This document shows positions 23,123 to 57,345 of a stretch of DNA of 64,000 nt, one piece after another. Position 1 is the first letter of the stretch, and the number at the start of each line of letters is the position of its first letter. Location of the stretch: the IMG/VR virus record IMGVR_UViG_3300047160_025247, one strand, 5' to 3'. The DNA comes from a virus. A program made the position numbers and the translations under genes. The notes beneath the pieces are model-generated. The model was not told the DNA's origin, did no database searches, and worked only from the letters and a program-made list of their open reading frames with translations.

Positions 23123-25939
23123 TTACTTTCGCTTCAGGAGGAGGTACGCGCCGAGACCGACGAGGCCGAGGGTCAGCGCGGAGGAGCCGACGGGGAAGGC
23201 GCCCATGCCGCTGAAGGCTGCGCCCGGCTGGTTCGCGTAGAGCGAGGCCTCGGAGGCATCGTCATCCGGGCCGGCATCGGCGGTGTTGGTCGCGTCGCCG
23301 CTCGGCGCACCGCCGCGGCGATGGCGATGGCGACGGCGGCGAGGCTGTGCCGCGGCGGCGGGGGCCGGCTGTGCGACGGCGACCACCGGCGCGCTCGCGC
23401 CGACGGAGTCCATCGCCTGGACTGGGCTCTTGAAGAGCGAGCCGAGCCACGACAGGAAGCCGGAATCGGCGCTCGGCGCCAGGGTCGGTGCGGCGCTCGC
23501 CGCCGCGGCAGCGACGGCGTCGGGCGTTGGAGCGCCGTTCTCGTCCGAGGTCGGTCCCATGTCCTCGGGACCGAAGGTGTCGACCGGCGTGGTGCTGTTC
23601 GAGGGGTCGCCGTAGTAGGACTGCTGCGCGACCGTCGGCGACTCGTCGGCCGGGTAGTCCTCCGACGACGGATCGAACGCGGTCTCGTCAGGGCTTGACG
23701 GCGAGTCGTACATCGTGTCCGGCGTCGGCGAGGATGCGCCTGGGTCACCGCCGCTCGGGTCGAAGTCCGAGCCGCTCGGGTCGCTGCTGTTGCCCGGGTC
23801 GAAGCTCGGATCGTAGGCCGACGGATCGCTGTTCGGGCCACCCGGCGTCGGGTACATGCCGCCACCGCCGCCGGAGGACGGATCCATGCTCGGATCGTAG
23901 TAGGACGGATCGTTCGACGACGGGCCGAGGTTGTTCTGGTTCTGGTTGGCGTAGGTCCACTGCCCGGTCGCCGGGTCGTAGACGTCGCCGGTCGCCGGGT
24001 CGGTCCACTTGCCGGTCGACGGGTCGTAGACGTAGCCGGTCGACGGGTCAGTGTACGGCTGGTTCGAGCCGGCGGTGGGCGCTGTGGGCTGGCTCGGCGC
24101 GCTCTGACCCTTCGGCTTGCGGAACATCGACTTGATGTTCGACGGCTTCACCGTGTTGAACAGCGAGCGGCCGGCGTTGTTCATCGAGCGCGCGATGTTC
24201 AGGTGCGACTGGACGATCTTCTGCGTCAGCTTCACCGGCGCGGTGGCGATCTTCGCCGGGATCGACGAGACGGCCTTGGTCACCTGCTGAAGCGGCTTGG
24301 TGATCGCCTTGGTCACCGAATGGAAGCTGAAGCGGCCGAGGTCACCGGCGAGGTCGTCGGAGTAGAGCACGCGGCCCATCTGGTCGCGCACCACAGCACC
24401 CTTGATCGGCGTCTTCAGCGGCGAGCGCGGGATCGCGCGGGCGCCGCGGTCGAACAGCTCCTTCTGCGCGGCCTGCACGGCCGGGACATCGTGGGCGACT
24501 TCGACGAGCGTGCCAACCTTGGTCGCCGCATGGCGCACCGGATCAAGTCCGGTCGGCAGCTTGGCGACGAGGTCCGGCGTGGCGAACGCGTGGTCGAGCG
24601 TCTTCAGGCGCGCGTAGGTGCGGCCGGCGGCGCGGCGGCGAACGTAGCTGCCGTTGGACGACTTCGCGACGAGCGCGCGAGCCTTGGCGGCGATGGCGGT
24701 CGCGAGCTGCGACACCGCGTTGGCGGCGCCAGCCTTCTCGTTGGCGACCGGATCCGCGCCGAGGCCGAAGATGGCGATCGAGCGGTTGACCTTGTCGGCG
24801 CGGTGGCGCGCGTGCTTCGCACGGTTCTCGGCGTGCACATGCGCGGCGACGGCCTTGTGCAGCGGGTCGGCCTTGCCGGCGACGCCCTGGAAGCCGGCGC
24901 AGGCGTTGACCTCGTGCTCCAGCGCCGACAGGTAGTCGGCGAGGCCGCCCAGCTCGCCCACCGTTGGGCCACCGGCGTTAGCCTTCGGCGCGAGGTTCTG
25001 CTTGCGGATGTTCACCGTGCGGATCGTCGGGCCGTGCACGCGCAGGTTCTTCACCGGCACGGTGTGCAGATAGCTCGTCATCACCTGCTCGGCGCGAGCG
25101 GTGAGCGGGCCATACGGGCGCAGCGAACCGCGAGGCGCGGTCTGCATCGGGTTCACGAGGTTGACGCTCTGGTCGAACATCGCGTCGAGATCTTCGCTCG
25201 GGCGCGTCACCTCGGCGGTGTTCATGATCCGACCGCGGCTGCCGGTGTCGGTGATGCGCGACTTCAGCGCCGGCACGACGGACGAGAGGTTGCGCACGTC
25301 GAGGTAGGACGGAGCGGAAGCGTAGGCGCCGAGGTTCATGTTGCCCAGTCCTGACAGGTCGGTGAAGAGCTTCTTCAGCTTGACTTTACTTGCCGGCGCT
25401 TCTTTTCCAAGCGGCCACTCGCGCATGATCGGATCCGCGGGGACCACTTCGCCGGCGTGCGCGTAGTTGCCCGGCGGCATGATGATGTGCAGGTAGACGT
25501 GGCTGTAGCGGCCGGGCTGGGTGCCGATGACGACTGGGTAGCTCTGGATCCCGATCGAACCGAGCAGCGCCATCTCCAGGATGGTCATGTCGTCGCAGTC
25601 GCCCGCCTGCGAGTTGAACGCCGTCTCCTCCGGGTAGCTGAGGGTCTCCTGGTTCAGCGTCGAGCCGTCGTCGGCGTCGCCGATCGGATCCTTCACGTAG
25701 CGGATGTGGTCGCGGACCCACTCGTGGATCGCCTTCGACATCCCGTAGTAGTCTTTGTTCGCGACGTTGGCCGCGTTCACGATGTTGATCGCGAGGGCGC
25801 GGATCTTCGCGCTGCGCGAGCCGTACTCGCCCTTCGCCATCTTCGACATCATCTGCACGGTGGCGTCGACGCCGGCGTTGCCCTCCGGCAGACGTCCGCG
25901 CTGCACATCGATATCGCCGTTGGCGAGATGCATGGTCAC
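23123..25939 (-). CDS. 938-aa polyprotein: N-terminal transglutaminase-like cysteine protease domain, G[LM]G-delimited modules, YDP repeats, C-terminal TM anchor
   Basis: WVRDHIRYVKDP, AGDCDD (Cys), YSHVY (His), PADP (Asp); ends LGLVGLGAYLLLKRK. Confidence 0.75.
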   Translation of the reverse strand: MTMHLANGDIDVQRGRLPEGNAGVDATVQMMSKMAKGEYGSRSAKIRALAINIVNAANVANKDYYGMSKAIHEWVRDHIRYVKDPIGDADDGSTLNQETLSYPEETAFNSQAGDCDDMTILEMALLGSIGIQSYPVVIGTQPGRYSHVYLHIIMPPGNYAHAGEVVPADPIMREWPLGKEAPASKVKLKKLFTDLSGLGNMNLGAYASAPSYLDVRNLSSVVPALKSRITDTGSRGRIMNTAEVTRPSEDLDAMFDQSVNLVNPMQTAPRGSLRPYGPLTARAEQVMTSYLHTVPVKNLRVHGPTIRTVNIRKQNLAPKANAGGPTVGELGGLADYLSALEHEVNACAGFQGVAGKADPLHKAVAAHVHAENRAKHARHRADKVNRSIAIFGLGADPVANEKAGAANAVSQLATAIAAKARALVAKSSNGSYVRRRAAGRTYARLKTLDHAFATPDLVAKLPTGLDPVRHAATKVGTLVEVAHDVPAVQAAQKELFDRGARAIPRSPLKTPIKGAVVRDQMGRVLYSDDLAGDLGRFSFHSVTKAITKPLQQVTKAVSSIPAKIATAPVKLTQKIVQSHLNIARSMNNAGRSLFNTVKPSNIKSMFRKPKGQSAPSQPTAPTAGSNQPYTDPSTGYVYDPSTGKWTDPATGDVYDPATGQWTYANQNQNNLGPSSNDPSYYDPSMDPSSGGGGGMYPTPGGPNSDPSAYDPSFDPGNSSDPSGSDFDPSGGDPGASSPTPDTMYDSPSSPDETAFDPSSEDYPADESPTVAQQSYYGDPSNSTTPVDTFGPEDMGPTSDENGAPTPDAVAAAAASAAPTLAPSADSGFLSWLGSLFKSPVQAMDSVGASAPVVAVAQPAPAAAAQPRRRRHRHRRGGAPSGDATNTADAGPDDDASEASLYANQPGAAFSGMGAFPVGSSALTLGLVGLGAYLLLKRK

Positions 25940-25943
25940 AGCC

Positions 25944-25961
25944 TATCCGTTATTTCGGACA
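25944..25961. promoter_or_regulatory. TGTCCG-N6-CGGACA-type site (1 mismatch)
   Basis: TATCCG-TTATTT-CGGACA, 4 nt upstream of the polyprotein ATG. Confidence 0.65.
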
Positions 25962-26033
25962 AGGGGATTGATTTTTCCCGAGCGATGCATGTGTGTCGAT
26001 TTACGCGATCCAGCCGGGTCAAGAAGGGTTGGG

Positions 26034-27167
26034 TTAGCGGTGATCCCGGAATGAGGTGTTCGTGGTCGGATGGACGCACCACACCCAGCCACGCTTGATC
26101 TTCGCGAAGCGTGGGTCGTACTTCACCGAGGTGCGGTTCAGCCAGAACTTTCCTTCCGGCGTGTAGACGACCTGCTCATACCCATGCTTCGGTAGCTTCC
26201 CGTTGCCGTACTGCTTCACGAGCGCGCCGGCTTCTTTATCGCTGACGTAGTAGTGTGAGTGACTGATGTGGCGAGACGAGTCGACGAGTTGCTTCGGGTT
26301 GATCTTCGTCTTCTTGATGGTCTTCGTGATCGTCGTGCTGGTGTGCCACTGCGCCTTCGAGCGCAGCTTCGCCTTCTTGCCGAGGCGACGCTTCGGGTTG
26401 ACCTCGGTGTCCGTCTCCAGCGAGATCTCGTCGTGGATGCGCGGCTTGTCGAGCAGCGCGATGCCTTCCTTCGTCCACGCCTTGAGGCTGTCCTCGTCCC
26501 CCGCGATGCCCGAACCGCTGCCAGGAAGCGCCGCAATGGAGAGGGAGATCAGATCCTTCCCCGCCTTCTCGTCCTTGTTGCGATAGCCGGGAGCCGGCCG
26601 GTAGCTGCCAGCACCGCCACGCGCCACGACCTTGCCCTTCCCGACCACCAGCTCCCAACTGCCATCATCGCGCCAGTAGGCGGTCAGCGGGCCGGCGCTG
26701 GTGTTGATGCGGTACATGTGCATGCCGGGGTTTGACTTCTTCCCGCCCGTCAGCAGCGACGCGAGGTGCTTGGTCACTTCCTTCTGGGACGTGAGCGAAG
26801 CCGTCGACTGCTGGATGAACGCCCAGCGGATCGCTTCGTATGCGATGTGGTCACCACTCTGTCGGGCCACCACCAGCGCGACCTTGAGCGCGTCGAGAGG
26901 GGAAGTTCCCGAGCGCAGCTCCCGCTTGAGCCGGCGCCCTGCAGTGCTCTGGTACCCGGTGGGGATGTCATGCAGCGCTTCGACAGCTGAGCGCGCCGGG
27001 TTCATCCGCGCCATACGCCGCGTCTCGGCGGTGCCGAGGTTGTACGGCCGCTTGATGCGAACCGTCGACGCGGTGCGCGGATCTCCGCTGCGGTGCCCCT
27101 TGCGGCGAGCCGCACCAAAGCCGAGCAGAGCAAGCGCGCCGCCGGCGCCGAGGATGTAGGGAAGCAT
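26034..27167 (-). CDS. NP-delimited basic polyprotein with N-terminal hydrophobic segment
   Basis: MLPYILGAGGALALLGFG, then modules separated by RMNP, KSNP, EVNP and KINP. Confidence 0.7.
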   Translation of the reverse strand: MLPYILGAGGALALLGFGAARRKGHRSGDPRTASTVRIKRPYNLGTAETRRMARMNPARSAVEALHDIPTGYQSTAGRRLKRELRSGTSPLDALKVALVVARQSGDHIAYEAIRWAFIQQSTASLTSQKEVTKHLASLLTGGKKSNPGMHMYRINTSAGPLTAYWRDDGSWELVVGKGKVVARGGAGSYRPAPGYRNKDEKAGKDLISLSIAALPGSGSGIAGDEDSLKAWTKEGIALLDKPRIHDEISLETDTEVNPKRRLGKKAKLRSKAQWHTSTTITKTIKKTKINPKQLVDSSRHISHSHYYVSDKEAGALVKQYGNGKLPKHGYEQVVYTPEGKFWLNRTSVKYDPRFAKIKRGWVWCVHPTTNTSFRDHR

Positions 27168-27178
27168 GGTAGCGTCCT

Positions 27179-27379
27179 TCAGCGTGTCTGTGAGCCGTGA
27201 GCGCGGAGGATGGCGGCCTTCAAGGCATCTGGCACCGGCTGTCCCGACTTCTGCAGCGCCGCTGCCTGGGTGAGCGCCGCGTCGCCAGCAGCCTGAACGC
27301 GTGCCGGATCGTTCGCCCGCTTCCAAAGGAAGTAGGCCACCACGGCGACGGCTCCGATGGCGAACGCGCTCTTCTTCAT
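27179..27379 (-). CDS. small membrane protein
   Basis: MKKSAFAIGAVAVVAYFLWKR. Confidence 0.7.
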   Translation of the reverse strand: MKKSAFAIGAVAVVAYFLWKRANDPARVQAAGDAALTQAAALQKSGQPVPDALKAAILRAHGSQTR

Positions 27380-27498
27380 CCCTTGGCCTTCTGCTTCCGC
27401 CGCTTCTTGCCGAACGCGCGGTCCCAGCCGGATTCGAAACGACGACGCTCCTCAGGAGAGTTGCCCCGCCGCGTCGAACCCTTGCCGTTCTCGCTCAT
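27376..27498 (-). CDS. 40-aa phage protein (GKGS...WDRxFGK type); not in the ORF track
   Basis: MSENGKGSTRRGNSPEERRRFESGWDRAFGKKRRKQKAKG; ATGA overlap with the next gene. Confidence 0.6.
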   Translation of the reverse strand: MSENGKGSTRRGNSPEERRRFESGWDRAFGKKRRKQKAKG

Positions 27499-27505
27499 GG
27501 CTCGA

Positions 27506-27709
27506 TCAGCGGTGCGGCTGCTTGATCTTGCGGAGCTTGCCGCCGACCTTCAGCCAGACGCGGCCGTTCTTCCAGACCAGCTTGTACTTGCGGGCCAGCT
27601 TGGCGCCGCGACGGCGCTTAGCGGCCTTGGAAGCGGCGGTGGCGACCTTGCGCTTGAAGGTCACGCGGACCTTCTTGCGACCGTGATGGAACGTGACTCG
27701 AACAGCCAT
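27506..27709 (-). CDS. very basic 67-aa protein, putative DNA-condensing core protein
   Basis: Very Lys/Arg-rich with no acidic residues; AGGAG RBS. Confidence 0.65.
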   Translation of the reverse strand: MAVRVTFHHGRKKVRVTFKRKVATAASKAAKRRRGAKLARKYKLVWKNGRVWLKVGGKLRKIKQPHR

Positions 27710-27737
27710 GACAGACTCCTGGGTGAGGGTGAAGAAA

Positions 27738-28151
27738 TCAGCGACGCCGACGACGGCGCCGACGGGGGTTGGTGGAGGAGCGCAGCTCTTCCTCGTAGTT
27801 CTCGGCGATCTCGGCCGCGGCCTCGCGACGGTCGCTCTTGCTGAACGAGCCGTAGCTGCCGTTGCCCGAACCGCCGAACTCCCTGGTGTACTTCTGCGCG
27901 GCGGCGTCGGCGAGGAAGAGCCAGAGCTTCAGCGCCTTGGCGGCGTCGTACTTGCCGTTCTTGATCTTCTTGCGCAGGTTCACCATGATCGGCTGCGCAC
28001 GCTGCCGGTACAGATCGCCGTCGTTGACCGCGTAGAGCGCCAGCTCGCGAGCGGCCTCCGACGGGTTGCGCCGGCGACGACGCTTCCGGCGCCGCGGCGG
28101 GTTGCCGAGCAAGAGGGAGCCGAAGCCAGCTGCGAGGATGGTGCCGAGCAT
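27738..28151 (-). CDS. NP-delimited protein: hydrophobic N-terminus, poly-Arg, helical phage module, poly-Arg
   Basis: LLLGNPPRRRKRRRRRNP-SEAARELALYAVNDGDLYRQ...-STNPRRRRRRR. Confidence 0.75.
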   Translation of the reverse strand: MLGTILAAGFGSLLLGNPPRRRKRRRRRNPSEAARELALYAVNDGDLYRQRAQPIMVNLRKKIKNGKYDAAKALKLWLFLADAAAQKYTREFGGSGNGSYGSFSKSDRREAAAEIAENYEEELRSSTNPRRRRRRRR

Positions 28152-28161
28152 GAGGTATCCT

Positions 28162-29832
28162 TCAGTGCACGCCGATGATGATGTTCAGCTTCGCCCGCGC
28201 GTTGCCGCAGAGGTGCACGTTGCCACCCTTGCCTGCCCGCTGCTTGTCCAACTCCTTCATCCGCTCGGCGACGTGCATCTCTTCGAGCAGCTTGGTGTCG
28301 TCCAGGCGCGCCGCGGCGATGACCTTCTCGTGCTGCGGGATCGCCGTGTTCGGGCAGCTGCCGCAGGCGATCGGACACGGGACTTCGCCGGGGCCCTTCA
28401 CCGCGGTGAGGAAGGCGTAGGTCGACGCCTGCACGATCGGTCCCGGTACCATCGTCGGCTCGCCGATCGCGTTGCGGACACGCTCCAGCGTGCGACTGCC
28501 CTTGGATTCGAGGTCGTGTACCGTCGCCACGTAGTCGTTGTAAGACGCGGCGAGGTCGGGGTTCGCGTGTGTGATCAGCGCGCCCAGGCGCGAGCGCAGC
28601 GCTTCTACGGCTGACGCCTTGCGTCCGGCGGACATGCTGCTGTTCGCCACCGCGGCGACGCGTTTGGTGTAGGCGGCCCACACCTTCTCACCGCGCACCT
28701 TGGTCATCGCCTTCCACAGCAGGCGCTCCATCGGGTCGATTGCGATGTACTCGCCGCGGGCGATCGGGAGCGCACGCATCTTGGCGAGCATCGCCGGGTC
28801 GCGGTAGTAGCGGCTGCCGCTGGAGATGTTGAGCACGTAGTTGGTCGGCCAGTAGCTGGCGCCGTTCTTCTCGTGCACCGAGAGGAACTCCGGCCACGAC
28901 TTCGAGTAGCCGTACACCGTGATGCCTTTGGCGCCGAGCGCGCGAACACCTTCCATCCACGTTTCGATCGCCGCGGCGCTGCGGAAATCGCCGTCGACGA
29001 ACAGGCGCATGATCTTCACGCCTTTCTTGGCGTTCAGCTTCAGCATGCGATCGACGACGGTGGCGACATGCAGCGTGGGGTCGACGCTCATGCCGAGCGT
29101 GAGCGTGTAGAGGCGGTAGCAGACGGTCGGGTTGCGCAGCGCCTTCAGCGAGTAGCAGAACGACGCGCAGCCGTTGATGTCGACGCCCTGCGACGCGTTG
29201 GCCGCACCGAGCGCACTGCCGCCGAGCTGCGCGAACTTCGCCGCGACGCCGCCGGCGCCGGGGCAGGTGACGACCGGCATCTCGGAGTAGGCGGCGAAGG
29301 GGAGCTTGACGTTGCCGTCCTCGGCGAGCGCGCAGCGCGCGACGTCGTCCCACAGCGGGATCGGGCGTCCCTTGTACTTCGTGCGCTCGCCCTTGGTCGC
29401 GGCGCTGCGCACCGGCGCCTGACCGGCGACGAGGCAGTCGACGTACTCGGCGAGCTTCTCGTAGACGTTCACGAAGGTGACGCCTGCGGTATCACCCTTG
29501 CTGCGCGAGCGCGCGAACGATGCGAGCTTGCGGCAGAGAATGGCCGCCGACGACCACTCGCGGTTCACGATCAGCCCGGCGACGGCGAGCGCAGCGTAGG
29601 TCGGGATCACGACCTTGGCGTCTGGCGTCTGGTAGGCGAGGATCGCTGCTTCCTGCTCGGTGGTCAGCGGCGGGTTCGTCCGCACGCGCTTCCTGAAGTC
29701 CGCCTTGGCGATCTTCCGCGCCCGCGCCGGGTTGTAGAACGGCGAGAACGGCGAGTAGAGGCGGCCGGATCCACCCATGGAGGCCGAGGCCTCGCTCGTG
29801 TTGCCGACGGGCTGCGCGAGGTCACTTGGCAT
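28162..29832 (-). CDS. GP88-like Cys-rich protein with an NP-containing basic N-terminal leader
   Basis: TCPGAG...CASFCYSLK, RLFVDGDF, YGYSKS, NYVLNISS, CPIACGSC...HLCG...IIIGVH. Confidence 0.65.
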   Translation of the reverse strand: MPSDLAQPVGNTSEASASMGGSGRLYSPFSPFYNPARARKIAKADFRKRVRTNPPLTTEQEAAILAYQTPDAKVVIPTYAALAVAGLIVNREWSSAAILCRKLASFARSRSKGDTAGVTFVNVYEKLAEYVDCLVAGQAPVRSAATKGERTKYKGRPIPLWDDVARCALAEDGNVKLPFAAYSEMPVVTCPGAGGVAAKFAQLGGSALGAANASQGVDINGCASFCYSLKALRNPTVCYRLYTLTLGMSVDPTLHVATVVDRMLKLNAKKGVKIMRLFVDGDFRSAAAIETWMEGVRALGAKGITVYGYSKSWPEFLSVHEKNGASYWPTNYVLNISSGSRYYRDPAMLAKMRALPIARGEYIAIDPMERLLWKAMTKVRGEKVWAAYTKRVAAVANSSMSAGRKASAVEALRSRLGALITHANPDLAASYNDYVATVHDLESKGSRTLERVRNAIGEPTMVPGPIVQASTYAFLTAVKGPGEVPCPIACGSCPNTAIPQHEKVIAAARLDDTKLLEEMHVAERMKELDKQRAGKGGNVHLCGNARAKLNIIIGVH

Positions 29833-29837
29833 GGTGA

Positions 29838-30299
29838 TCAGAGCCCGTATTGCGCGGCGAGCGCCTTGTTCTGGTTGCGGATCATGTAGTACGCGAGACC
29901 GATCGCGCCGCCGGCGAGCAGCGTGCCGATCAGCGCCTTGTTGTCGCGCACCGACGCGGGCAGCTGGTTGAACTGCGAGGCGAGCTTGGCCTTGGTCGCC
30001 GGGTTGGTCGACATCGTCAGCACGGTGCCGGTGAGACCGACGCTCATGCCGATGATCGCGAGCGCCTTGCCGAGCGCATCCTGCTTCGCCTGCTGCGGCG
30101 AGAGCGTCATGCTGATGCCCGACTTCCGCTGCACCGCGGCGCGGATCGCCGGGTTGGCGGCGAGCACCATCAGGCCGCCGATGATGCCGACGGTGGCGCC
30201 GGCGAGGCTGAGCGTGCGACCGAGTGCTTCGCGCTTCGTGTCGTCCGCCGAGAGCTTCAGCTGCACCGGCTTGGTTATGTCGGGGACCAGGAAACCCAC
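29838..30299 (-). CDS. membrane protein with three hydrophobic segments (internal duplication)
   Basis: Two similar ALG(R/K).L...G.T.G....NPA units; GAGGT RBS before GTG. Confidence 0.7.
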   Translation of the reverse strand: MGFLVPDITKPVQLKLSADDTKREALGRTLSLAGATVGIIGGLMVLAANPAIRAAVQRKSGISMTLSPQQAKQDALGKALAIIGMSVGLTGTVLTMSTNPATKAKLASQFNQLPASVRDNKALIGTLLAGGAIGLAYYMIRNQNKALAAQYGL

Positions 30300-30306
30300 G
30301 ACGACC

Positions 30307-31002
30307 TCAGCGCATCTTCAGGAGCAGACCCACACCGATGACCGCTGCGGCCGTGATCATCAGCGTCTTCATCGCACTGGCACCGGCCGCTGCGGCCTGC
30401 GCGCCGGCGTTCGCCGGGATGTCGCCGTCGGCCAGCTCGGGCGCGGTGAGGTAGCCGACCGCGACCATGTCGCCGTCGTCCTCCTCGCCGAAGCCCGGCA
30501 TGAAGCCGGAATTGGGCGCCATCGGGCGCGAGCGCGCCGGCGTGCCCATGATGCGCGGCTTCTGCACCTTGCGCAGCTTCGGCGCGCGATGCGCGCGGGC
30601 GCGGGCGTGGCCGGCGAGATCGGTGTCGTCTCCCATGCCCGGCATGAAGGTGCCGGCGAGGTCACCGAACATCGACTCGATGTCGCCCATACCCGGCATG
30701 AACTTGCCGCCGTGGGACGGGAGGCGGTTCGTCACCGGCTGCGCGACCTTGCGATCGAGCGGGATCCGCATCGAGCGATCCATGTGCGGGGTGATGTTGC
30801 GCGCCTTCGGCGCCGGGACGCGAGCGCCGAGCGGGATGCTCAGCGACTGCGCGCCGAGGTCGCCCATGCCCGGCACCATCGGCCCGTGCGGCACCGGCAT
30901 CTGGTGCGACATCCGCGGTGTGATGTTCTTGTCCATCCGCGGCGTGATGCTGCGACTGTGGGTGGCGGCGCGCAGATGGGTCGCAAGGCGGTTGCGGTGC
31001 AT
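30307..31002 (-). CDS. repeat-containing protein with four PG[MF]G motifs and C-terminal TM anchor
   Basis: VPGMGD, MPGMGD x2, MPGFGE; (N/S)ITP(R/H)M x3; ends AAAVIGVGLLLKMR. Confidence 0.75.
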   Translation of the reverse strand: MHRNRLATHLRAATHSRSITPRMDKNITPRMSHQMPVPHGPMVPGMGDLGAQSLSIPLGARVPAPKARNITPHMDRSMRIPLDRKVAQPVTNRLPSHGGKFMPGMGDIESMFGDLAGTFMPGMGDDTDLAGHARARAHRAPKLRKVQKPRIMGTPARSRPMAPNSGFMPGFGEEDDGDMVAVGYLTAPELADGDIPANAGAQAAAAGASAMKTLMITAAAVIGVGLLLKMR

Positions 31003-31037
31003 GGCAGTTTTTCCTTGACGTGAACGGTGTTACTCTA

Positions 31038-31055
31038 TGTCCGTTTTATCGGTCA
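31038..31055. promoter_or_regulatory. TGTCCG-N6-CGGACA-type site (1 mismatch)
   Basis: TGTCCG-TTTTAT-CGGTCA, 35 nt upstream of the 31002 ATG. Confidence 0.65.
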
Positions 31056-31060
31056 GCAAC

Positions 31061-32152
31061 TCACTTATTCAGCCAGAAAAACCCGCCAATCAGTGCGAGC
31101 GTGCTGAGCAGACCGCCGCCCCCGGATGCTGGTGCGGAAATGGGCGCCTGAGCGACTGCGGTCTGAGCATCGGCGAGCAGCTGCGGGTTAGCGCGGATCG
31201 CCTTGGCGAGCGCGTTCCGGACCCCACTGCGGTACTGAGCACCGTCGAGCGTGGCTTCGATCTGCGCGATGCGCGTCGCGATCTGAGCCTTCCCTTGTGC
31301 GACCAGCTGATAGGCACGCTTGCGCACCTGATCTTCCTGACTCAGACCTGTGATCAGCCGGAACGGGTAGCCGTGCATGACGCGAACACCCATGACCGGA
31401 TCGGCGAGCATCGCCTCGGCCTGCTGCGTCGCGTGATCCATGTGCTGTTTCCATTCCGCGTCGAAGTGGTTGAGCTTGTCCGCCGTCTTGTCCTGCCCGA
31501 GCACCTTGGCGATCATGACCCACGACTTGATCGTCTGATCACCAGCCCAGCGCAGCGGCGCTGCGTTCATCTGCACGAGCGGCTTCGCGATCGGCTTCGC
31601 GACCACGCGAGCTGCGTCAGTGATCGCCTTGCCGGCGTTGTTCCACGCGTCGCGCAGCCAGCCATCGAGCGGCTGATTCGAGACCGCGAGGCGCTGCGCC
31701 GCGGGCCACTCGTCGCTGGTGACCTGAATCGCCTTCGCCGAAGCTTCGACCTCCTTGGCCTCGCCGTAGTTGCTCAGCTCATTGATCGACGCGTTCACGA
31801 TCTCCTGGATCTTGCGCTTCACGTAGGGACCGGTGAACAGCTTGATGAGCGCGATCAGCGCGGCGATGATGGCGAGGATCCAACCGATCGGCGTCTCTGA
31901 CGTCGCGAGCGCGGCAACGCTCAGACCGGTCGACAGCGCGACGGACTTCGCCGCCTCTTCGATCACGGCGCGCTTCAACGCGATCACCTGATCGTGGACC
32001 GCGTCTCCACCGCCGCCCGGCTGCGACATCGCGGCCGAAGCCTGCGTCTGCGTCACCGACAGCTGTGCTTGCTCTTCGGGTGAGAGCGCGTCGTCGCCAA
32101 GCCATGCGCCGTGCGGATCCTCGTCGAACACCTCGTCGAACGAGTAGTCCAT
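31061..32152 (-). CDS. helical membrane protein with internal and C-terminal TM segments
   Basis: IGWILAIIAALIALIKLF; ends GLLSTLALIGGFFWLNK. Confidence 0.75.
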   Translation of the reverse strand: MDYSFDEVFDEDPHGAWLGDDALSPEEQAQLSVTQTQASAAMSQPGGGGDAVHDQVIALKRAVIEEAAKSVALSTGLSVAALATSETPIGWILAIIAALIALIKLFTGPYVKRKIQEIVNASINELSNYGEAKEVEASAKAIQVTSDEWPAAQRLAVSNQPLDGWLRDAWNNAGKAITDAARVVAKPIAKPLVQMNAAPLRWAGDQTIKSWVMIAKVLGQDKTADKLNHFDAEWKQHMDHATQQAEAMLADPVMGVRVMHGYPFRLITGLSQEDQVRKRAYQLVAQGKAQIATRIAQIEATLDGAQYRSGVRNALAKAIRANPQLLADAQTAVAQAPISAPASGGGGLLSTLALIGGFFWLNK

Positions 32153-32155
32153 CGC

Positions 32156-32629
32156 TCACTTCCGCCGGAGCAGGAAAAATCCACCGAGGAGCACCGCGCC
32201 CAGGACGGCCGCGCCGATCATCAGCTCCTTCTTCGTGCCGCTGTTGTCGGCCGGCTTCTGCGCAGCCTGTACGGCCGCGTTCACCGCCTGCTGAGCTTCG
32301 GCCGCTTGCTGCTGTGCCGCCGCGGCCTGCTGCTGCGCTGCGGCGCTCGCCGCCTTCTGATCCTTCGAGTCGATCTTCGCCTGGCGCACGGCCATGAAGG
32401 TGCCCGTGAGCGCGGTCAAGGCGTTGATGGCGTTGGTGATCGTCGAGACAGTGCTCGCGGTGCTCGCCGCGGTCGCGGCTTCCTCACCGTAGCCGAGCGC
32501 ACCGAGGCTCGGGTTGTCGAGCGTGATGCTGCTGGCGAAGGGTCCGTTGGCGTGCCGAATGTAGACCGGGTCGCCACCGTGGAACGCGGTCGACCGGCTC
32601 GGGAAGGCAACTGTCCGCTGGTACGCCAT
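32156..32629 (-). CDS. membrane protein with Q/A-rich helix and C-terminal TM anchor
   Basis: Likely start MAYQRT; SLGALGYG; ends VLGAVLLGGFFLLRRK. Confidence 0.7.
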   Translation of the reverse strand: MAYQRTVAFPSRSTAFHGGDPVYIRHANGPFASSITLDNPSLGALGYGEEAATAASTASTVSTITNAINALTALTGTFMAVRQAKIDSKDQKAASAAAQQQAAAAQQQAAEAQQAVNAAVQAAQKPADNSGTKKELMIGAAVLGAVLLGGFFLLRRK

Positions 32630-32678
32630 GCCGGAGTATGGCGTGTCCGTTCTTTCGGGCAACGCCCGCTCGCAACCC

Positions 32679-33002
32679 CTACTCTTCGACGACCTCGTCC
32701 TCGCCGAGCTGGGTGAAATTGGGGTCATCGACTTCCCCCGGCGGCCGGCGCGGCGCCTGCTGCGGCTCTTCATCCCCATCGAGCTGGTTTGTCTGCTTGG
32801 GCGCGCCTTGCTCCTGCGACCCGAAGCAGCCGGCGCATTCGATCTGATCGTTCGGGCGCTTGTCCGCGGCCTGCACGACGGAACCAGGCCGGACGTCGGG
32901 GTGCGGACGGAGCGCGAGCTTGAGTCCGCAGACGGCTTCCCACTTCACCGATCCGTCGGCGAGGCGCTCCAGAGGCTTGCTGAGCTGGTGGAAGGTGGTC
33001 AT
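32679..33002 (-). CDS. hypothetical protein with Cys motifs and acidic tail
   Basis: AVCG...ECAGC; start coupled to the upstream stop. Confidence 0.55.
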   Translation of the reverse strand: MTTFHQLSKPLERLADGSVKWEAVCGLKLALRPHPDVRPGSVVQAADKRPNDQIECAGCFGSQEQGAPKQTNQLDGDEEPQQAPRRPPGEVDDPNFTQLGEDEVVEE

Positions 33003-35690: not shown

Positions 35691-36326
35691 CTACGCCCAG
35701 AAGTCCTCTCGGTGCTCACCGCGGCCGTAGCCGATCGGGTAGCGGTAGCCGGCGAGCGGCTCGTAGACATGCGTGACCGCGAACGGCGGTCGCGTGATCA
35801 CGCCACAGGTCCGCTCGATCTCCGTCAGCACCGAGTCCATCTCCCGCTCCAGCTGCGCGTGCGTTCCGCGCAGCGCGTTCAAAAGCAGGCGGCTTTCGTC
35901 CGCATATAGGCGCAGGAATGGCCGCGGCGCGAGCGACATGTCGCGAAGGTTGTCGATGCGGTCGACGAGCTTGACCACCCGAACCACGTTGGAGCACGAC
36001 GCAATGTGAAGCCGGTCCATCTGCTTCCGCTGCTCACGGCGCATCGCCGGAAAACGCTTCGAGGGGTTGGTCAGGTGGTGCACGAGCCACGCTGTCGGCT
36101 CGCCAAGCGCCCGCTCCAGGTAACCGAAGCTGATGCCGCAGTCCTCCATGGTGTCATGGCAGAAGCCAGCCGCGGCAATGTGCGCGGCGAAGCCCATCTT
36201 GTGCAACCGGGTGCCGACGCGGTCGACGTGGATGAAGTACGGCTGCCCGGTGTACTTCCGCTTCTGCTTCGTGTGCGCGAGCTTCGCGAACCGGCGCGCG
36301 TCCATAACCAAGGGATCGAGCGTCAT
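35691..36326 (-). CDS. stand-alone RelA/SpoT-type HD hydrolase (Mesh1/SAH-like)
   Basis: AH.KQKRK.TGQPYFIH...FCHDTMED...VKLVDRIDNLRD. Confidence 0.85.
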   Translation of the reverse strand: MTLDPLVMDARRFAKLAHTKQKRKYTGQPYFIHVDRVGTRLHKMGFAAHIAAAGFCHDTMEDCGISFGYLERALGEPTAWLVHHLTNPSKRFPAMRREQRKQMDRLHIASCSNVVRVVKLVDRIDNLRDMSLAPRPFLRLYADESRLLLNALRGTHAQLEREMDSVLTEIERTCGVITRPPFAVTHVYEPLAGYRYPIGYGRGEHREDFWA

Positions 36327-51086: not shown

Positions 51087-51089
51087 TGC

Positions 51090-51699: not shown

Positions 51700-52056
51700 A
51701 TGTCCCTCCACGACTTCTTCAACAAGCTCGCTGGCATCACGAAGCCCGCGATCGACGACGGCAAGGCCGAGCTGCTCAAGCACGACAGCTTCCTGTCGCT
51801 GCGCACGCTCGCTGTGGTCGCCTTCGCCGGCTACCTGCTCTACCTCAACCACCTGCTGCTGACGCCGGAGAACCTCAAGCTGGTGTTCTACCTCGTCGCG
51901 CTGTTGATCGTCTGCAACACGCTCTCGAAGTGCGTCGTTGCCTGGGTGAACGGCTGGATCACCACCACGCAGACCAAGGCGTTCAGCCAGGACAACCAGA
52001 TCGATGCGAACGAGAAGGCGGTGCTCGACCAGTCGGGCGCGCGGACTGACAAGTAG
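51700..52056 (+). CDS. two-TM membrane protein (holin-like)
   Basis: AAAGGAG RBS; two hydrophobic helices. Confidence 0.6.
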   Translation: MSLHDFFNKLAGITKPAIDDGKAELLKHDSFLSLRTLAVVAFAGYLLYLNHLLLTPENLKLVFYLVALLIVCNTLSKCVVAWVNGWITTTQTKAFSQDNQIDANEKAVLDQSGARTDK

Positions 52057-52102
52057 GGCGCAAAAAGCAAGCGCGGCTTGCACCTACCTTATACACCGAC
52101 AT

Positions 52103-52139
52103 CATAGTCGATGACCTATTACCCATAGTCGATGACCTA
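52103..52139 (+). repeat. 16-bp direct repeat CATAGTCGATGACCTA x2 (21-bp period)
   Basis: Copies at 52103-52118 and 52124-52139, immediately before the GGGAG RBS of 52150. Confidence 0.8.
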
Positions 52140-52149
52140 GGGAGCCTTC

Positions 52150-52551
52150 ATGGCACGCACCGTCGCTCAGTACCACGCCACGACCTCTGCCGACATCCAG
52201 ACGGCGGTCGATGCCGCGCTCGCAGCGCTGACCAACCCAACGATCCGCGGGCTGAAGATCAACGTGCGCAACCTGCAGCGCCGCATCGGTCGCGAGTACA
52301 ATGTGCTCCTGACCTACGACACCGGTGGCTCGGCGCTCGCGACGCCCTTCCACATGAAGCTCTTCGAGTACGCGACACCCGAAGCGCTGCTCACCGCGTT
52401 GCAGGCTTACATCTCGGGCAACAGCTACTTCTTCGCGGCGCCGTTCCTCTACGTCATCGACGACACGGTGCACACGCCGCTCTACGGCGCGATGCTGCTC
52501 TACAACACCACGACCGGCGCGTCGGCGAACTTCACCCCGCTCAACCCGTAA
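52150..52551 (+). CDS. structural protein paralogous to the N-terminal domain of 44917-45726
   Basis: LTYDTGG...TPFHMKLF...YFFAAPF...LLYN versus VSYETGG...NPYKIKGF...YFFSPLF...VVYN. Confidence 0.6.
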   Translation: MARTVAQYHATTSADIQTAVDAALAALTNPTIRGLKINVRNLQRRIGREYNVLLTYDTGGSALATPFHMKLFEYATPEALLTALQAYISGNSYFFAAPFLYVIDDTVHTPLYGAMLLYNTTTGASANFTPLNP

Positions 52552-52560
52552 GGGACCACC

Positions 52561-53562
52561 ATGGCCGTCAACATCGGCTCGCTCACTGGCGGGACACTCA
52601 ACACGATCGCGCTCGCCGCTCCGCTGGACCAGGCGACGCGCGACGTCGTCGCACAGCTGTTCCAGAAGATGGCGACGGCTATGCCGTGGATCACCTACGA
52701 TCCCGTCGGCATGTCGGCGCTCGCGATGGATCAGCAGAGCTATCCGTACCCGGTACAGACCATCGGTAACCCGCCGGTGTGGCTGAACACCGCCGATCGA
52801 CTGCAGGTGTGGCGCGACATCGCTGGGCAGTTCGTGCCGATCACGCAGCAGATCCTGACCGGGCAGATCCTGCAGGCACGCGTCGTCGCCATCGCGCTGA
52901 ACAACAACGTCACGTTCTGGAACAACGTCGCGCGCTACAGCGGCGTCGATGCGATCAACGCGGTGTGGGATGACCTGTGGCAGGCCATCGCGTCCTTCCG
53001 CGCCTCGCGCGACGCGACCAAGGTCGCCTTCGACCAGACCGCGCCGATCGTGGCGCAGTACGGCGCGAAGATCCCGGCGTCGCTCACGTCGCAGCGCGCC
53101 GCTCTGATCGCGCAGTTCAACGACCTCACCAACCGCGCCAGCACCACCCTCGCGCCGCTCGGCGCGCAGGCGCGCACTGCGGCAGGCCTCGGCATCGCGC
53201 CGTTGGTGATCGCCGGCATCGCCGCAGCCACGGTCGCGACCATCGCCGCCGCGGTCTGGGGCATCGCGCACGAGTTCTCGGCGGTGCAGATCAACGCGAA
53301 CAACAACGCACAGGCGATCCTACAGGCGCGCGACACCGCCGACCAGGCGGACTTCGAAGCGGGCAAGATCACCAACGAGCAGCTGACCCAGCGCCGCAAC
53401 GACAACGTCACCTCGGCCGCGAAGCTCGTCGACGCCGAAGGCGCCGGAGCCGTCGGCCGTGCCGTCGGCCGCGCCGGAACCGGCGTCGCCATCGGTGTCG
53501 GTGCGCTCGCGCTTGCGCTCATCGGTGGCTACTTTCTGCTCCGCAAGTCGCGTTCGTCCTGA
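52561..53562 (+). CDS. helical membrane protein with an AAGLG motif, internal hydrophobic helix and C-terminal TM anchor
   Basis: AAGLG-IAPLVIAGIAAATV...; ends LALIGGYFLLRKSRSS. Confidence 0.7.
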   Translation: MAVNIGSLTGGTLNTIALAAPLDQATRDVVAQLFQKMATAMPWITYDPVGMSALAMDQQSYPYPVQTIGNPPVWLNTADRLQVWRDIAGQFVPITQQILTGQILQARVVAIALNNNVTFWNNVARYSGVDAINAVWDDLWQAIASFRASRDATKVAFDQTAPIVAQYGAKIPASLTSQRAALIAQFNDLTNRASTTLAPLGAQARTAAGLGIAPLVIAGIAAATVATIAAAVWGIAHEFSAVQINANNNAQAILQARDTADQADFEAGKITNEQLTQRRNDNVTSAAKLVDAEGAGAVGRAVGRAGTGVAIGVGALALALIGGYFLLRKSRSS

Positions 53563-53574
53563 GAGCCCACGCGC

Positions 53575-54204
53575 ATGCAGCAGATGGGCTACCGCTTCAT
53601 CGAAGCGTGTGCGTTGCTTCCAATGCTGTTCGTGCCGCAGAACCGTCAAAACGCGGTGTTCTGCACAGGCGCGCAGGCTGAGACCTTCGCCGCGCACTGC
53701 CTCCGCTGGCGCGACGTCAACTGCGTCTACCTCCGCGAGAAGCCGATCCGTCCCCTCGCCGAGCGCGACGACCCGATCTTCAAGGACAAGACCAAGCAGA
53801 TCATCGTCGCAGCGATGCCGCCGGTCGGCTCCTGTGCCGCGGTGCTAACGTCGCCAGGTGAAGACCCCGACGCCTACCTCGGCGCGCTCGCGGCCGACGG
53901 CGTGGTCTGCGTCACTCGATACGATGTGACCGAGGTGCAGCCGATGCTCTGGCATATGCGCCGGCTCTTCCCGCGGTCGGTGATCCCGTGGCGGGAGTAC
54001 CTTCCCCAGGAGATCTACGGCGCCATCGCCAGCCCTCGCGGCGTTCCGACCCAACAGCGCAGTCCGCCCCAGAGCGCGAAACGCCTGAATAACCAGTACC
54101 TCAAGGCCATGTTCAACTTCGGCCAGGACGAGCTACCGATGGTATTCGGCGGCATGTCCGGTAAAAAGGACACAGCAGCCCCAGGGAAGACGAGCCATGC
54201 CTGA
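53575..54204 (+). CDS. degenerate spermidine-synthase-like (class I SAM fold) protein
   Basis: Order LLPMLFVP...AVF...CLRWRDV...LAADGVVCV...LFP...LNNQY..AMF follows SpeE, but the GGGDG motif is absent. Confidence 0.45.
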   Translation: MQQMGYRFIEACALLPMLFVPQNRQNAVFCTGAQAETFAAHCLRWRDVNCVYLREKPIRPLAERDDPIFKDKTKQIIVAAMPPVGSCAAVLTSPGEDPDAYLGALAADGVVCVTRYDVTEVQPMLWHMRRLFPRSVIPWREYLPQEIYGAIASPRGVPTQQRSPPQSAKRLNNQYLKAMFNFGQDELPMVFGGMSGKKDTAAPGKTSHA

Positions 54205-54769
54205 CCCAACCAGCACCGCCGTCCCAACCCTCCCACTTCCGCAGATCACCACGCCGAACAACCCGACGGCGCCAGCGGCGATCACCAGCTCGCTGCCGAT
54301 TCCGGCGACGATGATCAAGCAGCTGCTGAGCGGACAGCCGGCCTACACCGTCAACCGCGAGCGCGCTGCAGCCGTGCTCGACGCAGGCTTCAAGACCGCG
54401 GACACCTACAACCGCATCAAGCCCGCGCTCTTCGTCGGCGGTCTGATCGGCATGGCGGCGAGCGTCTACGCGATGTCGAAGCGCCACGGTCGCGGCGGCG
54501 AGGCCATCGCGACGTGGGCCACGGTGTTCCTCGCGAGCGCGGCAACTGCCTGGGTCACGCGCCCGATCGCGAACGCGGCGAAGCCGCCGGCGGGCTCCTC
54601 GGCCGCGGCGCAGAACTCCTTCGGCATGCTCGCGATCATCGACAAGCGCCGCGCCGAGCTGAAGGCCCAGGATCCCAACTTCGCCGACAAGGTCTTCGCC
54701 CGCTTCGACGCACTGCCTGTGGTCGCCGCGCAGCTCGACGCCTCGCCGCTCCTGAAGGCCGTGCTCTGA
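54197..54769 (+). CDS. two-TM membrane protein with Pro/Thr-rich N-terminus
   Basis: ALFVGGLIGMAASVYAM; IATWATVFLASAATAWV. Confidence 0.65.
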   Translation: MPDPTSTAVPTLPLPQITTPNNPTAPAAITSSLPIPATMIKQLLSGQPAYTVNRERAAAVLDAGFKTADTYNRIKPALFVGGLIGMAASVYAMSKRHGRGGEAIATWATVFLASAATAWVTRPIANAAKPPAGSSAAAQNSFGMLAIIDKRRAELKAQDPNFADKVFARFDALPVVAAQLDASPLLKAVL

Positions 54770-54772
54770 GTC

Positions 54773-55279
54773 ATGGTCTGCAATCCGCGCCACATTCTGC
54801 GCGGCTTCAATGGCATCATGCCGACGCACGAGCCGGAAAAGATCCTCGGGCTCACCGGCAAGCGGAAGATCTGGAAGTGCCGGGTCGTCGGCTACGACCT
54901 CTACACCGTCGACGGCAAGCACATCCGGTCGCAGTGGGCCGACTTCATTGGTGGCTCACATCATCTCGTGAACCAGTTCATCCCGAAGACGGAGATCTGG
55001 CTCGACGCAACGGTGCGCGGAGAGTGGCCCGGCTATCTCGCGTCGCACGAGCTGCTCGAAGCGCTGCTGATGCAGCTCCGAGGCTGGACCTACGATCGCG
55101 CCCACACCGCCGCGAACGGTCTGGAGCAAGAGCTGCGCGGCACAGCTGAGCACAACTCCCTCAGCGGTCCCAAGATCGCCGAGATCTGGGGCCACCATCT
55201 TCGCGAGCTGTTCCCGAAAGGCGACGACGTCCAAGTGGTCGCCGACACCGTCGCTCGCCAATTCTGGAGGTTCCTGTGA
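54773..55279 (+). CDS. hypothetical protein with an HE-x-x-E...H metal-site-like motif
   Basis: VDG..IR...DFIGGSH...FIP..EIWLD...SHELLEALLM...YDRAH. Confidence 0.55.
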   Translation: MVCNPRHILRGFNGIMPTHEPEKILGLTGKRKIWKCRVVGYDLYTVDGKHIRSQWADFIGGSHHLVNQFIPKTEIWLDATVRGEWPGYLASHELLEALLMQLRGWTYDRAHTAANGLEQELRGTAEHNSLSGPKIAEIWGHHLRELFPKGDDVQVVADTVARQFWRFL

Positions 55280-55899
55280 TCGGCGCACTCATCGGCGGCA
55301 TCGCGACTCTCGCGCTCGTGGGCAATCCGCCGCACCGGACGCAGCGTCGGCGGCGGCGCAACCCGCTTCGTCGCGGCCGTTCTCGCGCCGTGGTCAGCGG
55401 AAATATCCGCGAGCTGATGCACGCCGGCTACCCACAGAAGCAGGCGGTCGCTATCGCGTTGAAGAAGTCGCGCAACCCGCACCTCGGCAACAAGGGTGAC
55501 GAGTTCAAGAAGCACGCCGCACTGCGCGTGCTGCAGGACGCGATCGAGAAGCAGTACGGCAAGCGCCTCTCGCTCGATCAGGTGCAGAGCTTCCTCAACG
55601 ACGCCGAGCGCTTCATGCGCCGCGAGCACGCGAGGCGGACCTTCCGCGTCGTCGAGGGCCGCCGGCGTGCGAACCCGGTCTCGGTCGACACGCTAGCGAT
55701 GCCGGTGGCGAGCATGTTCTGGCGCAAGCACGGCTACCAGTCGCCCGGCCACGCCGAGGATCTCGCGATGATGGCGAAGCGCGGCTCGACCGCCCAGAAG
55801 CTCTGGGCGCGCGTCGCCCAGATCCTGAAGGGCTGGCTCTACGGCGGAAAGAAGCGCTCGAACCCCTGTTTTAGGGGCATGCGGAAACACAAGCACTGA
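55276..55899 (+). CDS. NP-delimited basic polyprotein with hydrophobic N-terminus
   Basis: LALVGNP, RRRNP, SRNP, RANP and RSNP separate small modules including SGNIRELMHAGYPQKQAVAIAL. Confidence 0.75.
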   Translation: MIGALIGGIATLALVGNPPHRTQRRRRRNPLRRGRSRAVVSGNIRELMHAGYPQKQAVAIALKKSRNPHLGNKGDEFKKHAALRVLQDAIEKQYGKRLSLDQVQSFLNDAERFMRREHARRTFRVVEGRRRANPVSVDTLAMPVASMFWRKHGYQSPGHAEDLAMMAKRGSTAQKLWARVAQILKGWLYGGKKRSNPCFRGMRKHKH

Positions 55900-55953
55900 T
55901 CCACGAACCTTGTACACCCCCTTTAACCCCATAGGCTATGACCTGAGGTACCC

Positions 55954-56304
55954 ATGCAGCGCGACCCCCACGACGACCTCCTCCTGACCAAGCGGCCGAC
56001 CACGGTCGTGACGCAGGCCACCTCGCTCCTCGACAACGCCCCGGCGCCCTTCGGCGACGTCGACGACGAGGAGTTCATCTTCGCCGGCATCGCGGCCGAT
56101 GACGGTGATCTCGACAACGCCGCCACCTCCGCCGCGGCCCGCGCCGGCGTGATGTCGCGCGTGCCGAACGTCGCACCGGTCACCAGCCCGCTCAATCCGC
56201 CGCTGACGCCGCCCGCGCAGCCGGCGCCGAGCATCTGGCCGGTGGTCGCCATCCTCGGCGGTCTCGTCGGTATCACCTGGCTGATGAGCAGCAAGCGGAG
56301 CTGA
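55954..56304 (+). CDS. acidic small protein with C-terminal TM anchor
   Basis: Ends VVAILGGLVGITWLMSSKRS. Confidence 0.7.
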   Translation: MQRDPHDDLLLTKRPTTVVTQATSLLDNAPAPFGDVDDEEFIFAGIAADDGDLDNAATSAAARAGVMSRVPNVAPVTSPLNPPLTPPAQPAPSIWPVVAILGGLVGITWLMSSKRS

Positions 56305-56309
56305 GCTTC

Positions 56310-56585
56310 GTGAGCGGCTCGTACATGCAGTCGTACCTCAGCGGCGACGAGTTCGAAGTCGACGCGAGCCAGGCCACCTCGCCGCTCGCGCCGGCCTTCG
56401 GCGACGCACCGCCGGCTTCTGACCTCGTCACGCTCCCTGGTGGCATCGTCGTGCCACGGAAGACGCTGCTGACGCTCCTGGCGGTCGCCGCCGCGGTCGC
56501 GCTCTTCCTGTACCTCCGCAAGCGTGAGCGCCGCCTGCGGCGCCTGGAGCGCGCTTCGGCGAGCGAGGAAGGCGGCGACGAGTGA
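56310..56585 (+). CDS. small TM protein
   Basis: LLTLLAVAAAVALFLYLRKRERR. Confidence 0.7.
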   Translation: MSGSYMQSYLSGDEFEVDASQATSPLAPAFGDAPPASDLVTLPGGIVVPRKTLLTLLAVAAAVALFLYLRKRERRLRRLERASASEEGGDE

Positions 56586-56959
56586 ACCAGCAGCGGCCGG
56601 TGATGAACCAAGTGCTGGGCGGTCTGGGACAGATCGTCAACACGGGGTTGTTCCGCACCGCCGCGAAGAACTGGTGGATCACCGCGCCGCTCGGCCTCGC
56701 CGCCTACACGGTGCTGCGTGAGCGCCACAAGAAAGGCCAGCTGACGCTCGCGAACGCGATCAGCGACCTGACGCCGATGGTCACGCTAGTCGCGACGATC
56801 GTGATCCTCAACAATGTGCTCGAACAGCGTGAGGGCGCCACGCCAGCACCTGTCGCGGCGCGCCTGCCGCTTGGGCCCGTGAAGGACGCCAGCTTCACGC
56901 CGATGTCGCGCAACGACCAGCCGATCCCTGCCATCCCTGTCTCGGGAGCCATGACATGA
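56582..56959 (+). CDS. small two-TM protein
   Basis: VLGGLG motif; WWITAPLGLAAYTVL; LVATIVIL. Confidence 0.65.
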   Translation: MNQQRPVMNQVLGGLGQIVNTGLFRTAAKNWWITAPLGLAAYTVLRERHKKGQLTLANAISDLTPMVTLVATIVILNNVLEQREGATPAPVAARLPLGPVKDASFTPMSRNDQPIPAIPVSGAMT

Positions 56960-57345
56960 CCTTCCGCCGCCAAGCGCTCCCGCTCCACGCCGGTCGCTCG
57001 ATCAACCACACCAACGGCCGCGGCCTCGGCACGAAGCAGATCGTGAAGCCGCAGAACGGCCTGACGCTCGGGCGCCGCCCAATCATGCCGATCGTCCGCG
57101 GTCAGGGCATGTTCGGCCCCGCCGAAGAGTACAAGCCAGCCCTGATCGGCATGGGGCGCCGCCCCGTGTTCGCGCGCAGCGGCAACGAGGACTCGCAGCA
57201 CCTCGCCGACGGCGAAGACCACCCGTGGGCGCTCGTCGGCGACATGGAGCCGGCCGAGATCGAGGCGAACAAGCAGGCGGACGTCAAGTCCTACGCCGTC
57301 GGCGCGCTCGCCGCGCTCGCGCTCGGGATCCTCGCCTTCCGCTGA
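56956..57345 (+). CDS. small protein with LIGMG motif and C-terminal TM anchor
   Basis: Ends AVGALAALALGILAFR. Confidence 0.7.
   Translation: MTFRRQALPLHAGRSINHTNGRGLGTKQIVKPQNGLTLGRRPIMPIVRGQGMFGPAEEYKPALIGMGRRPVFARSGNEDSQHLADGEDHPWALVGDMEPAEIEANKQADVKSYAVGALAALALGILAFR

Follow-up and report, generated by a model that had tools for sequence, protein, structure and literature searches.

A membrane-anchored transglutaminase-fold protein and a recurrent adenain-like glycine motif in the virion module of an uncultured, putatively tailless bacterial virus

The 64,000-nucleotide stretch of viral DNA analyzed here (IMG/VR record IMGVR_UViG_3300047160_025247; hereafter, the window) encodes a membrane-anchored protein of 938 residues with a transglutaminase-like fold, on the minus strand at 23123–25939. 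A short glycine motif recurs within this protein and in tail-anchored proteins encoded nearby. The reading we favor, to which we assign a probability of about one half, is that the protein may be a membrane-tethered cysteine peptidase of the LapG/BTLCP type, cutting itself and the neighboring tail-anchored proteins at sites resembling those of adenain, the adenovirus protease. The finding is centered on the minus-strand block 17680–38697. The G+C content of the window is 60–70%, and its genes are clearly delineated by the G+C content of third codon positions.

The protein, referred to below as the enzyme, was studied through its translation and 124 homologs, many of them from contigs of 95–110 kb. 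A recorded copy carried by a 106,277-bp contig has 936 residues, its start being the ATG at 25933, two codons further in. The layout comprises an N-terminal catalytic domain, a long and partly low-complexity stalk and, at the C-terminus, a transmembrane helix with the basic residues KRK behind it. A hydropathy scan places the helix at residues 917–935 (23135–23191, minus strand, coordinates checked). The original prediction, made from the sequence of the window without database searches, had described this gene as a polyprotein headed by a protease, a description that is overstated in light of this organization. Residues about 620–900 of the stalk carry YDPxTGxW-type repeats (Pfam OCRE, E-value 2e-6). 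The stalk also contains a long low-complexity tract rich in Pro, Ser, Asp, and Gly, which is absent in homologs of about 550 residues. Tape-measure-like matches in PHROGs were weak, fell on low-complexity or coiled regions, and were not used. No DNA relatives of the region 23123–31002 were returned by megablast against the phage collection, and a profile sequence search of solved structures with the enzyme gave isocitrate dehydrogenase as its sole match, by chance.

The fold of the N-terminal domain is transglutaminase-like, with a papain-like alpha+beta architecture, as judged from an AlphaFold2 model built from a 60-sequence alignment. Residues 20–192 (25364–25882, minus strand) are modeled with a predicted local distance difference test score (pLDDT) above 90, and disorder is predicted from about residue 201. 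Pfam Transglut_core (PF01841) covers residues 62–160 of the window enzyme, scoring 24.5 bits where the curated cut-off is 23. The same family is matched by all 60 aligned homologs (best E-value 1.5e-11), and with 25.8 bits in G001 (L006–L011), a complete related genome (109,520 bp) bounded by direct terminal repeats. The top structural match of the modeled domain is 3kd4, a putative protease (Z score 14.1), and further matches include factor XIII (10.5), PNGase (10.4), 3isr (10.2), and transglutaminases 2 and 3 (about 10). Both the family-wide Pfam match and the similarity to 3kd4 uphold the fold proposed in the original prediction. Proven peptidases are also present among the structural matches, namely Legionella LapG (4fgo, Z score 8.8), the pseudomurein endoisopeptidases PeiW and PeiP (about 9), and vasohibin. 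Peptidase_C93 (PF06035, BTLCP) was matched weakly by 25 of the 60 homologs, with a best E-value of 0.001, and the window enzyme itself gave no match to this family at E-values up to 1. By these comparisons, proteases of the LapG/DvhG type are the nearest proven enzymes, with a marginal sequence likeness to Peptidase_C93.

Conservation within the domain is concentrated on its predicted active site. The putative triad Cys115-His147-Asp169 is invariant in all 121 sequences compared, which agrees with the triad first proposed, and Asp114 and Asp116 on either side of Cys115 are likewise invariant. On the minus strand, the corresponding codons lie at 25595–25597 (Cys115, within D-C-D), 25499–25501 (His147, within H-V-Y), and 25433–25435 (Asp169, within D-P-I-M), with coordinates of the latter two checked. 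Twelve homologs (P0019, P0034, P0035, P0047–P0049, P0059, P0061, P0069, P0114, P0118, and P0121) contain an intein of about 130 to 320 residues directly before the catalytic Cys, in the arrangement ...AGD↓CL...VVHN↓CDD.... The window copy carries no intein at the equivalent codon. Since the insertion lies exactly between AGD and CDD, the catalytic Cys doubles as the splicing nucleophile. Inteins are usually found where an essential protein is under the tightest constraint. The combination of an invariant triad and an intein at the Cys shows strong selection on the enzyme's own chemistry. Moreover, the D114-C115-D116 segment appears to parallel D316-C317-E318 of the BTLCP protease DvhG. There, the catalytic C317 sits between D316 and E318 of the calcium site, and cleavage of [T/A/P]AAG requires each of these three residues (PMC13090378). 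From these sequence features, the enzyme is probably active as a cysteine protease-like protein, and we infer that it is a peptidase.

The glycine motif was defined strictly as [LIVMF]-x-G-[LMF]-G, with expectations derived from residue shuffles. In 120 enzyme homologs, it occurs 318 times, against 23 ± 5 in the shuffles, a fourteen-fold excess, and permuted control patterns are far less frequent. Occurrences concentrate at three alignment positions (reference residues 197, about 392, and about 911), where the conserved motifs form islands within variable, disordered sequence. The first site, LSGLG (residues 195–199; 25343–25357, minus strand), marks the end of the folded domain and lies exactly at the boundary between fold and disorder in the AlphaFold2 model, with Gly197 present in 118 of 121 sequences. 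Its placement right after the domain, as originally described, is thus correct, whereas the full motif is found there in only part of the family. At the second site, IFGLG (residues 390–394; 24758–24772, minus strand), the strict motif is present in 52 homologs. The third, FSGMG (residues 909–913; 23201–23215, minus strand), stands a few residues ahead of the membrane anchor and is strict in 62 homologs. Gly911 is retained in 110 of 121 sequences and followed by Leu or Met in 93, in a region whose neighboring columns consist of 60–85% gaps.

Across 329 distinct instances, the first position of the motif is L (39%), M (22%), V (21%), I (12%), or F (7%). The second can be any residue, mostly A, P, S, N, or F, and is followed by G, then L, M, or F, then G, and finally A, D, E, or S. 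As the motif contains neither Gln nor Lys, it is no classical transglutaminase substrate. Its conserved form is that of the adenovirus type-1 site, so the adenoviral resemblance noted in the original prediction is retained.

Neighboring genes were read in seven related loci whose enzymes are 42–84% identical to that of the window, and their proteins were clustered. The enzyme gene and the motif are adjacent in every genome examined. Directly downstream of the enzyme gene, a 213-residue tail-anchored protein (22477–23118, minus strand) carries MAGLG at residues 101–105 (nucleotides 22804–22818). All nine members of this family, from eight genomes, have the motif at one aligned place with diverging flanks, for example, FIPGMAGLGADP, FIPGLSGLGEAP, GFVPGMGADP, and DMRGLGET. 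The protein is predicted to be largely disordered, and an ESM Atlas look-up for it gave nothing usable. The second candidate substrate is a tail-anchored protein of 231 residues (30307–31002, minus strand, translation and coordinates checked), in which four motifs delimit basic peptides: VPGMG (30862–30876), MPGMG (30685–30699 and 30631–30645), and MPGFG (30487–30501). Two to five copies are present in each of the five members of its family. The motifs are located in predicted disordered sequence. The enzyme and both candidates each end with a single transmembrane helix followed by basic residues, a common layout that would place their long N-terminal parts together on one side of a shared membrane.

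The enrichment of the motif is local. In the window, the module at 17680–32800 holds 8 motifs outside transmembrane segments against 1.1 expected, and the remaining window 5 against 2.1. The corresponding values in G001 are 9 against 1.3 for the module and 6 against 5.6 for the rest of the genome, and 10 of its 17 strict copies are situated in a 12-kb membrane-protein module beside the enzyme gene. Outside the module, counts are at expectation in both the window and G001. Membrane phages annotated without such an enzyme show no enrichment (P23-77, 0 against 2.4 expected; PRD1, 1 against 1.5). Codons vary among the eight core copies of the window, which indicates that selection acts on the protein; an origin from a DNA-level repeat was rejected, given that codons are unlike between sites.

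All motif strings quoted in the original prediction, together with GDCDD, SHVY, and ADP, were recovered by translation at the genes it had named, and VLGMG was located in the open reading frame 13353–14870. The far copies (52561–57345), on the other hand, are not conserved, and this far module should therefore be dropped from the claim. At 56582, LGGLG is embedded in a stretch that is conserved throughout, and the last Gly of the motif is variable; at 56956, a single Gly of LIGMG is kept within the family; and AAGLG at 52561 adjoins a transmembrane helix. The motifs at 3117–3770 and 39694–40401 are missing from the G001 orthologs. None of these five was accepted as a site, and all appear to be chance occurrences of the kind against which the original prediction had cautioned. 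The suggestion of a dozen processed precursors is overstated, since conserved strict motifs are found in three protein families only. Degenerate copies occur in two further families (18472–19527 and 32156–32779).

Under the favored reading, the enzyme would be a protein of the virion inner membrane whose active domain is tethered to the C-terminal anchor through a long flexible stalk. During particle assembly or afterwards, it would recognize [LIVMF]-x-G-[LMF]-G within disordered sequence and cleave at that motif. The targets would be anchored in the same membrane and in the same orientation, and would include the enzyme itself, the 213-residue protein, and the 231-residue protein. The enzyme would cut itself at three places, namely behind the domain, near residue 392, and immediately ahead of the anchor. 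From the 231-residue protein, short basic peptides would be detached, much as adenovirus core peptides are released, while its acidic part stays anchored. The functional analogue would be the action of the adenovirus protease on core and cement precursors.

Several points weigh against this reading. The link between enzyme and motif, from which we infer that the motif is the substrate, consists of their co-occurrence and adjacency, and cleavage products are not on record for the enzyme family. The transglutaminase-like fold is shared by transamidases, amidases, lysins with isopeptidase activity, and scaffolds that are inactive; fold and triad are hence no proof of proteolysis. Except for 3kd4, the Z scores of the domain are middling. 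Of 121 sequences, only 41 retain the last Gly of the first site and 23 have Pro instead, and three homologs contain no strict motif at all. Besides, a C39-like peptidase is present in one lineage (L003), and proteases too divergent for the family searches may have been missed in G001.

The most serious alternative, although one we consider unlikely, is that the motif serves as an uncut docking or assembly signal for a capsid shell, a scaffold, or a chaperone, while the enzyme performs an unrelated task, for example, as a virion-borne cell-wall peptidase needed for entry, comparable to PeiW and PeiP of archaeal viruses. Conserved short islands within disorder are generally typical of binding motifs, and PeiW and PeiP figure among the structural matches of the domain. 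Virion-associated muralytic enzymes also occur in membrane phages according to record annotations (P23-77 VP29 and PRD1 P7), and searches of G001 for the canonical SLT, lysozyme, and amidase_2 families gave no match. This role as a lysin is weakened, though still standing, in view of a separate 3D-domain muralytic candidate in G001 (80133–80774). In addition, a lysin would hardly be expected to bear the motif three times, once before its own anchor. The form of the motif, too, matches known cysteine-protease sites, and motif and enzyme gene are neighbors in each genome examined.

A sortase-like activity appears improbable. In this scenario, the enzyme would cut the motif and transfer the new C-terminus to an amine, provided by the head group of a lipid or by a lysine of the capsid, leading to cross-linking. 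The fold is indeed shared with the transamidating factor XIII and transglutaminases 2 and 3, and the succession of the third site, a hydrophobic helix, and a basic tail reproduces the three-part layout of sortase and exosortase signals. However, the motif lies 60–100 residues from the anchor in the 213- and 231-residue proteins, the D-C-D surroundings are those of the hydrolases LapG and DvhG rather than of the transglutaminase type, and no acceptor is known.

Comparably poor odds are given to the possibility that the motif is truly cleaved, but by a host protease or an unrecognized viral one, with the transglutaminase-fold protein being merely a substrate. The C39-like peptidase of L003 belongs to a family that cuts after Gly-Gly leaders, and most genes of these genomes have no recognizable family. 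Against this stand the signs of selection on the enzyme's chemistry described above and the outcome of family searches in the complete G001, where Peptidase_C5 (adenain), C48 (Ulp1-like), S78 (HK97-type prohead protease), ClpP, and C39 were not detected while the positive control Transglut_core was found; the window likewise contains no C39-like open reading frame. In L003, the Peptidase_C39-like protein is encoded next to a 3D-domain protein (20966–21475 and 21472–21644, both on the minus strand).

Finally, the motif as a functionless by-product of glycine-rich, high-GC, low-complexity sequence, which would account for the chance pentamers outside the core, is hardly credible and already contradicted for the three core proteins, considering the excess over shuffles, the positions kept in otherwise unalignable regions, the differing codons, and the missing excess outside the module and in P23-77 and PRD1.

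Comparison with known systems places the favored cysteine-peptidase reading in a wider context. The only relative of the enzyme in the phage database, and the only cultured one, is gp34 of SSIP-1 (32% identity over residues 24–170, E-value 2e-7; phmmer, 2e-14). SSIP-1 is a tailless, membrane-containing phage with Salisaeta sp. SP9-1 as its host, and gp34 carries the annotation of a structural protein. Like the enzyme, gp34 has a domain with D-C-D, H-V-Y, and D-P, followed by G-M-G and a C-terminal transmembrane helix. Small membrane proteins encoded in its vicinity (ORF36, gp37, ORF52, and gp53) contain G[LM]G at residues 15–32. Differences lie in the size of gp34 (304 residues versus 938, with no long stalk), in the genome (43.8 kb versus about 106 kb), and in the position of the motifs, which are found in N-terminal leaders rather than internally. 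No further genes common to SSIP-1 and this lineage were detectable.

Adenain (MEROPS C5) cuts core and cement precursors at (M/I/L)-X-G-X↓G and (M/I/L)-X-G-G↓X. Similarities include the hydrophobic-x-G-x-G form of the motif, the presence of several sites per virion protein, and jelly-roll capsids in both viruses. Short basic peptides, of the sort that adenovirus precursors give rise to, would also be produced from the 231-residue protein. The protease folds differ, being Ulp1-like in adenain and transglutaminase/papain-like here, and the present enzyme has a membrane anchor and a bacterial host; it lies outside the adenain family. The likeness to LapG and DvhG comprises the fold, the Cys-His-Asp triad, and the acidic residues flanking the catalytic Cys. 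The short small-residue motif ([T/A/P]AAG) that these two proteases cut lies where a surface protein is disordered. Nevertheless, the site sequence is another one, LapG is soluble, periplasmic, and regulated by LapD, and Peptidase_C93 matches are weak. PeiW and PeiP, from viruses of methanogens, are also virus-encoded, with a transglutaminase-like fold and a Cys-His-Asp peptidase mechanism. In contrast to the enzyme, they are soluble lysins of archaeal cell walls, with no membrane anchor and no motif in neighboring proteins.

With the Helvetiavirae (P23-77, SH1/HHIV-2/HCIV-1, and SPV1), which are tailless viruses with an internal membrane and single-jelly-roll capsid proteins, the resemblance concerns the capsid matches and the abundance of small membrane proteins in the virion module, whereas the genome of the window virus is three to six times larger. 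P23-77 further differs in that no transglutaminase-like gene is annotated and the motif is not enriched. Proteolytic maturation of jelly-roll viruses is known in adenoviruses and large eukaryotic DNA viruses, where it is carried out by Ulp1-like proteases. The literature searched yielded neither a maturation protease of tailless, membrane-containing bacterial or archaeal viruses nor an account of virion maturation by a transglutaminase-like protease in phages or other viruses without tails.

If the favored reading is correct, the enzyme would define a new family of virus-maturation proteases, membrane-anchored, with a transglutaminase fold and adenain-like sites. This would raise the question of whether the cleavage code is convergent or ancient in the virus realm, and the enzyme together with G-[LM]-G sites could provide a simple signature to spot virion modules in uncultured genomes of this type. 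Relative to known proteolytic virion maturation, the protease fold, the membrane tether, and the bacterial host would be new. It is a more tentative proposal that tailless, membrane-containing bacterial viruses, comprising this lineage of about 100 kb and SSIP-1, mature their particles through a membrane-tethered transglutaminase-fold protease acting at adenovirus-like sites, trimming membrane proteins, and releasing short basic peptides from a tail-anchored precursor. Prokaryotic jelly-roll viruses would then use an adenoviral-style maturation code on an unrelated protease fold.

The genomic context is consistent with an uncultured, tailless bacterial virus of about 106 kb with single-jelly-roll capsid proteins. 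A 191-residue protein (17680–18255, minus strand) with 134 homologs of fixed length is predicted as an all-beta, single-jelly-roll capsid-like protein (AlphaFold2 pLDDT 81). Its best solved matches are the capsid proteins of SPV1 (Z score 8.2), HHIV-2, P23-77, and HCIV-1, with scores that are middling (6–8) and mutually consistent. In the viral library, the best fold match is a 211-residue entry, I1ZBH9, with a template modeling score of 0.59. A paralog at 19760–20512 (plus strand) is fused to a BrnA-antitoxin-like N-terminal domain, and both proteins end in ...REI[QV]. No tailed-phage structural families were recognizable among the proteins scanned, and small membrane proteins are plentiful in the virion module.

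BLAST matches in G001 were obtained for 35 of the 85 window proteins. The genes of G001 include one for a 1632-residue protein with a family A DNA polymerase domain at its end, and others for UvrD-like and SNF2-like helicases and for a DNA methylase. The window encodes a ThyX homolog (5987–6964, plus strand) and an HD_4 domain protein (35691–36326, minus strand). Relatives were binned with assemblies of Planctomycetota and Gammaproteobacteria, which is a weak hint on the host. A receiver-like protein (cREC_REC; 20493–20954, minus strand) is kept beside the module in several relatives.

One of the two families with degenerate motifs deserves separate mention. The membrane protein at 18472–19527 (minus strand) carries GMAGLS (nucleotides 18703–18717) ahead of three GYVDSPAYQGTG repeats, and is a possible, unproven substrate. 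The strict motif is present in four of the eight family members, with GMEGLG in relatives. The three repeats are arranged in tandem and followed by an acidic tail, and repeats are present in all eight related genomes. The N-terminal part of the protein contains NPRRR-type basic stretches. Strongly basic tails of the N-P-R-R-R type represent a second recurrent motif of the module, as exemplified by TNPRRRRSKRRAR (L001 6504–7088, L002 7329–9986, and window 18472–19527).

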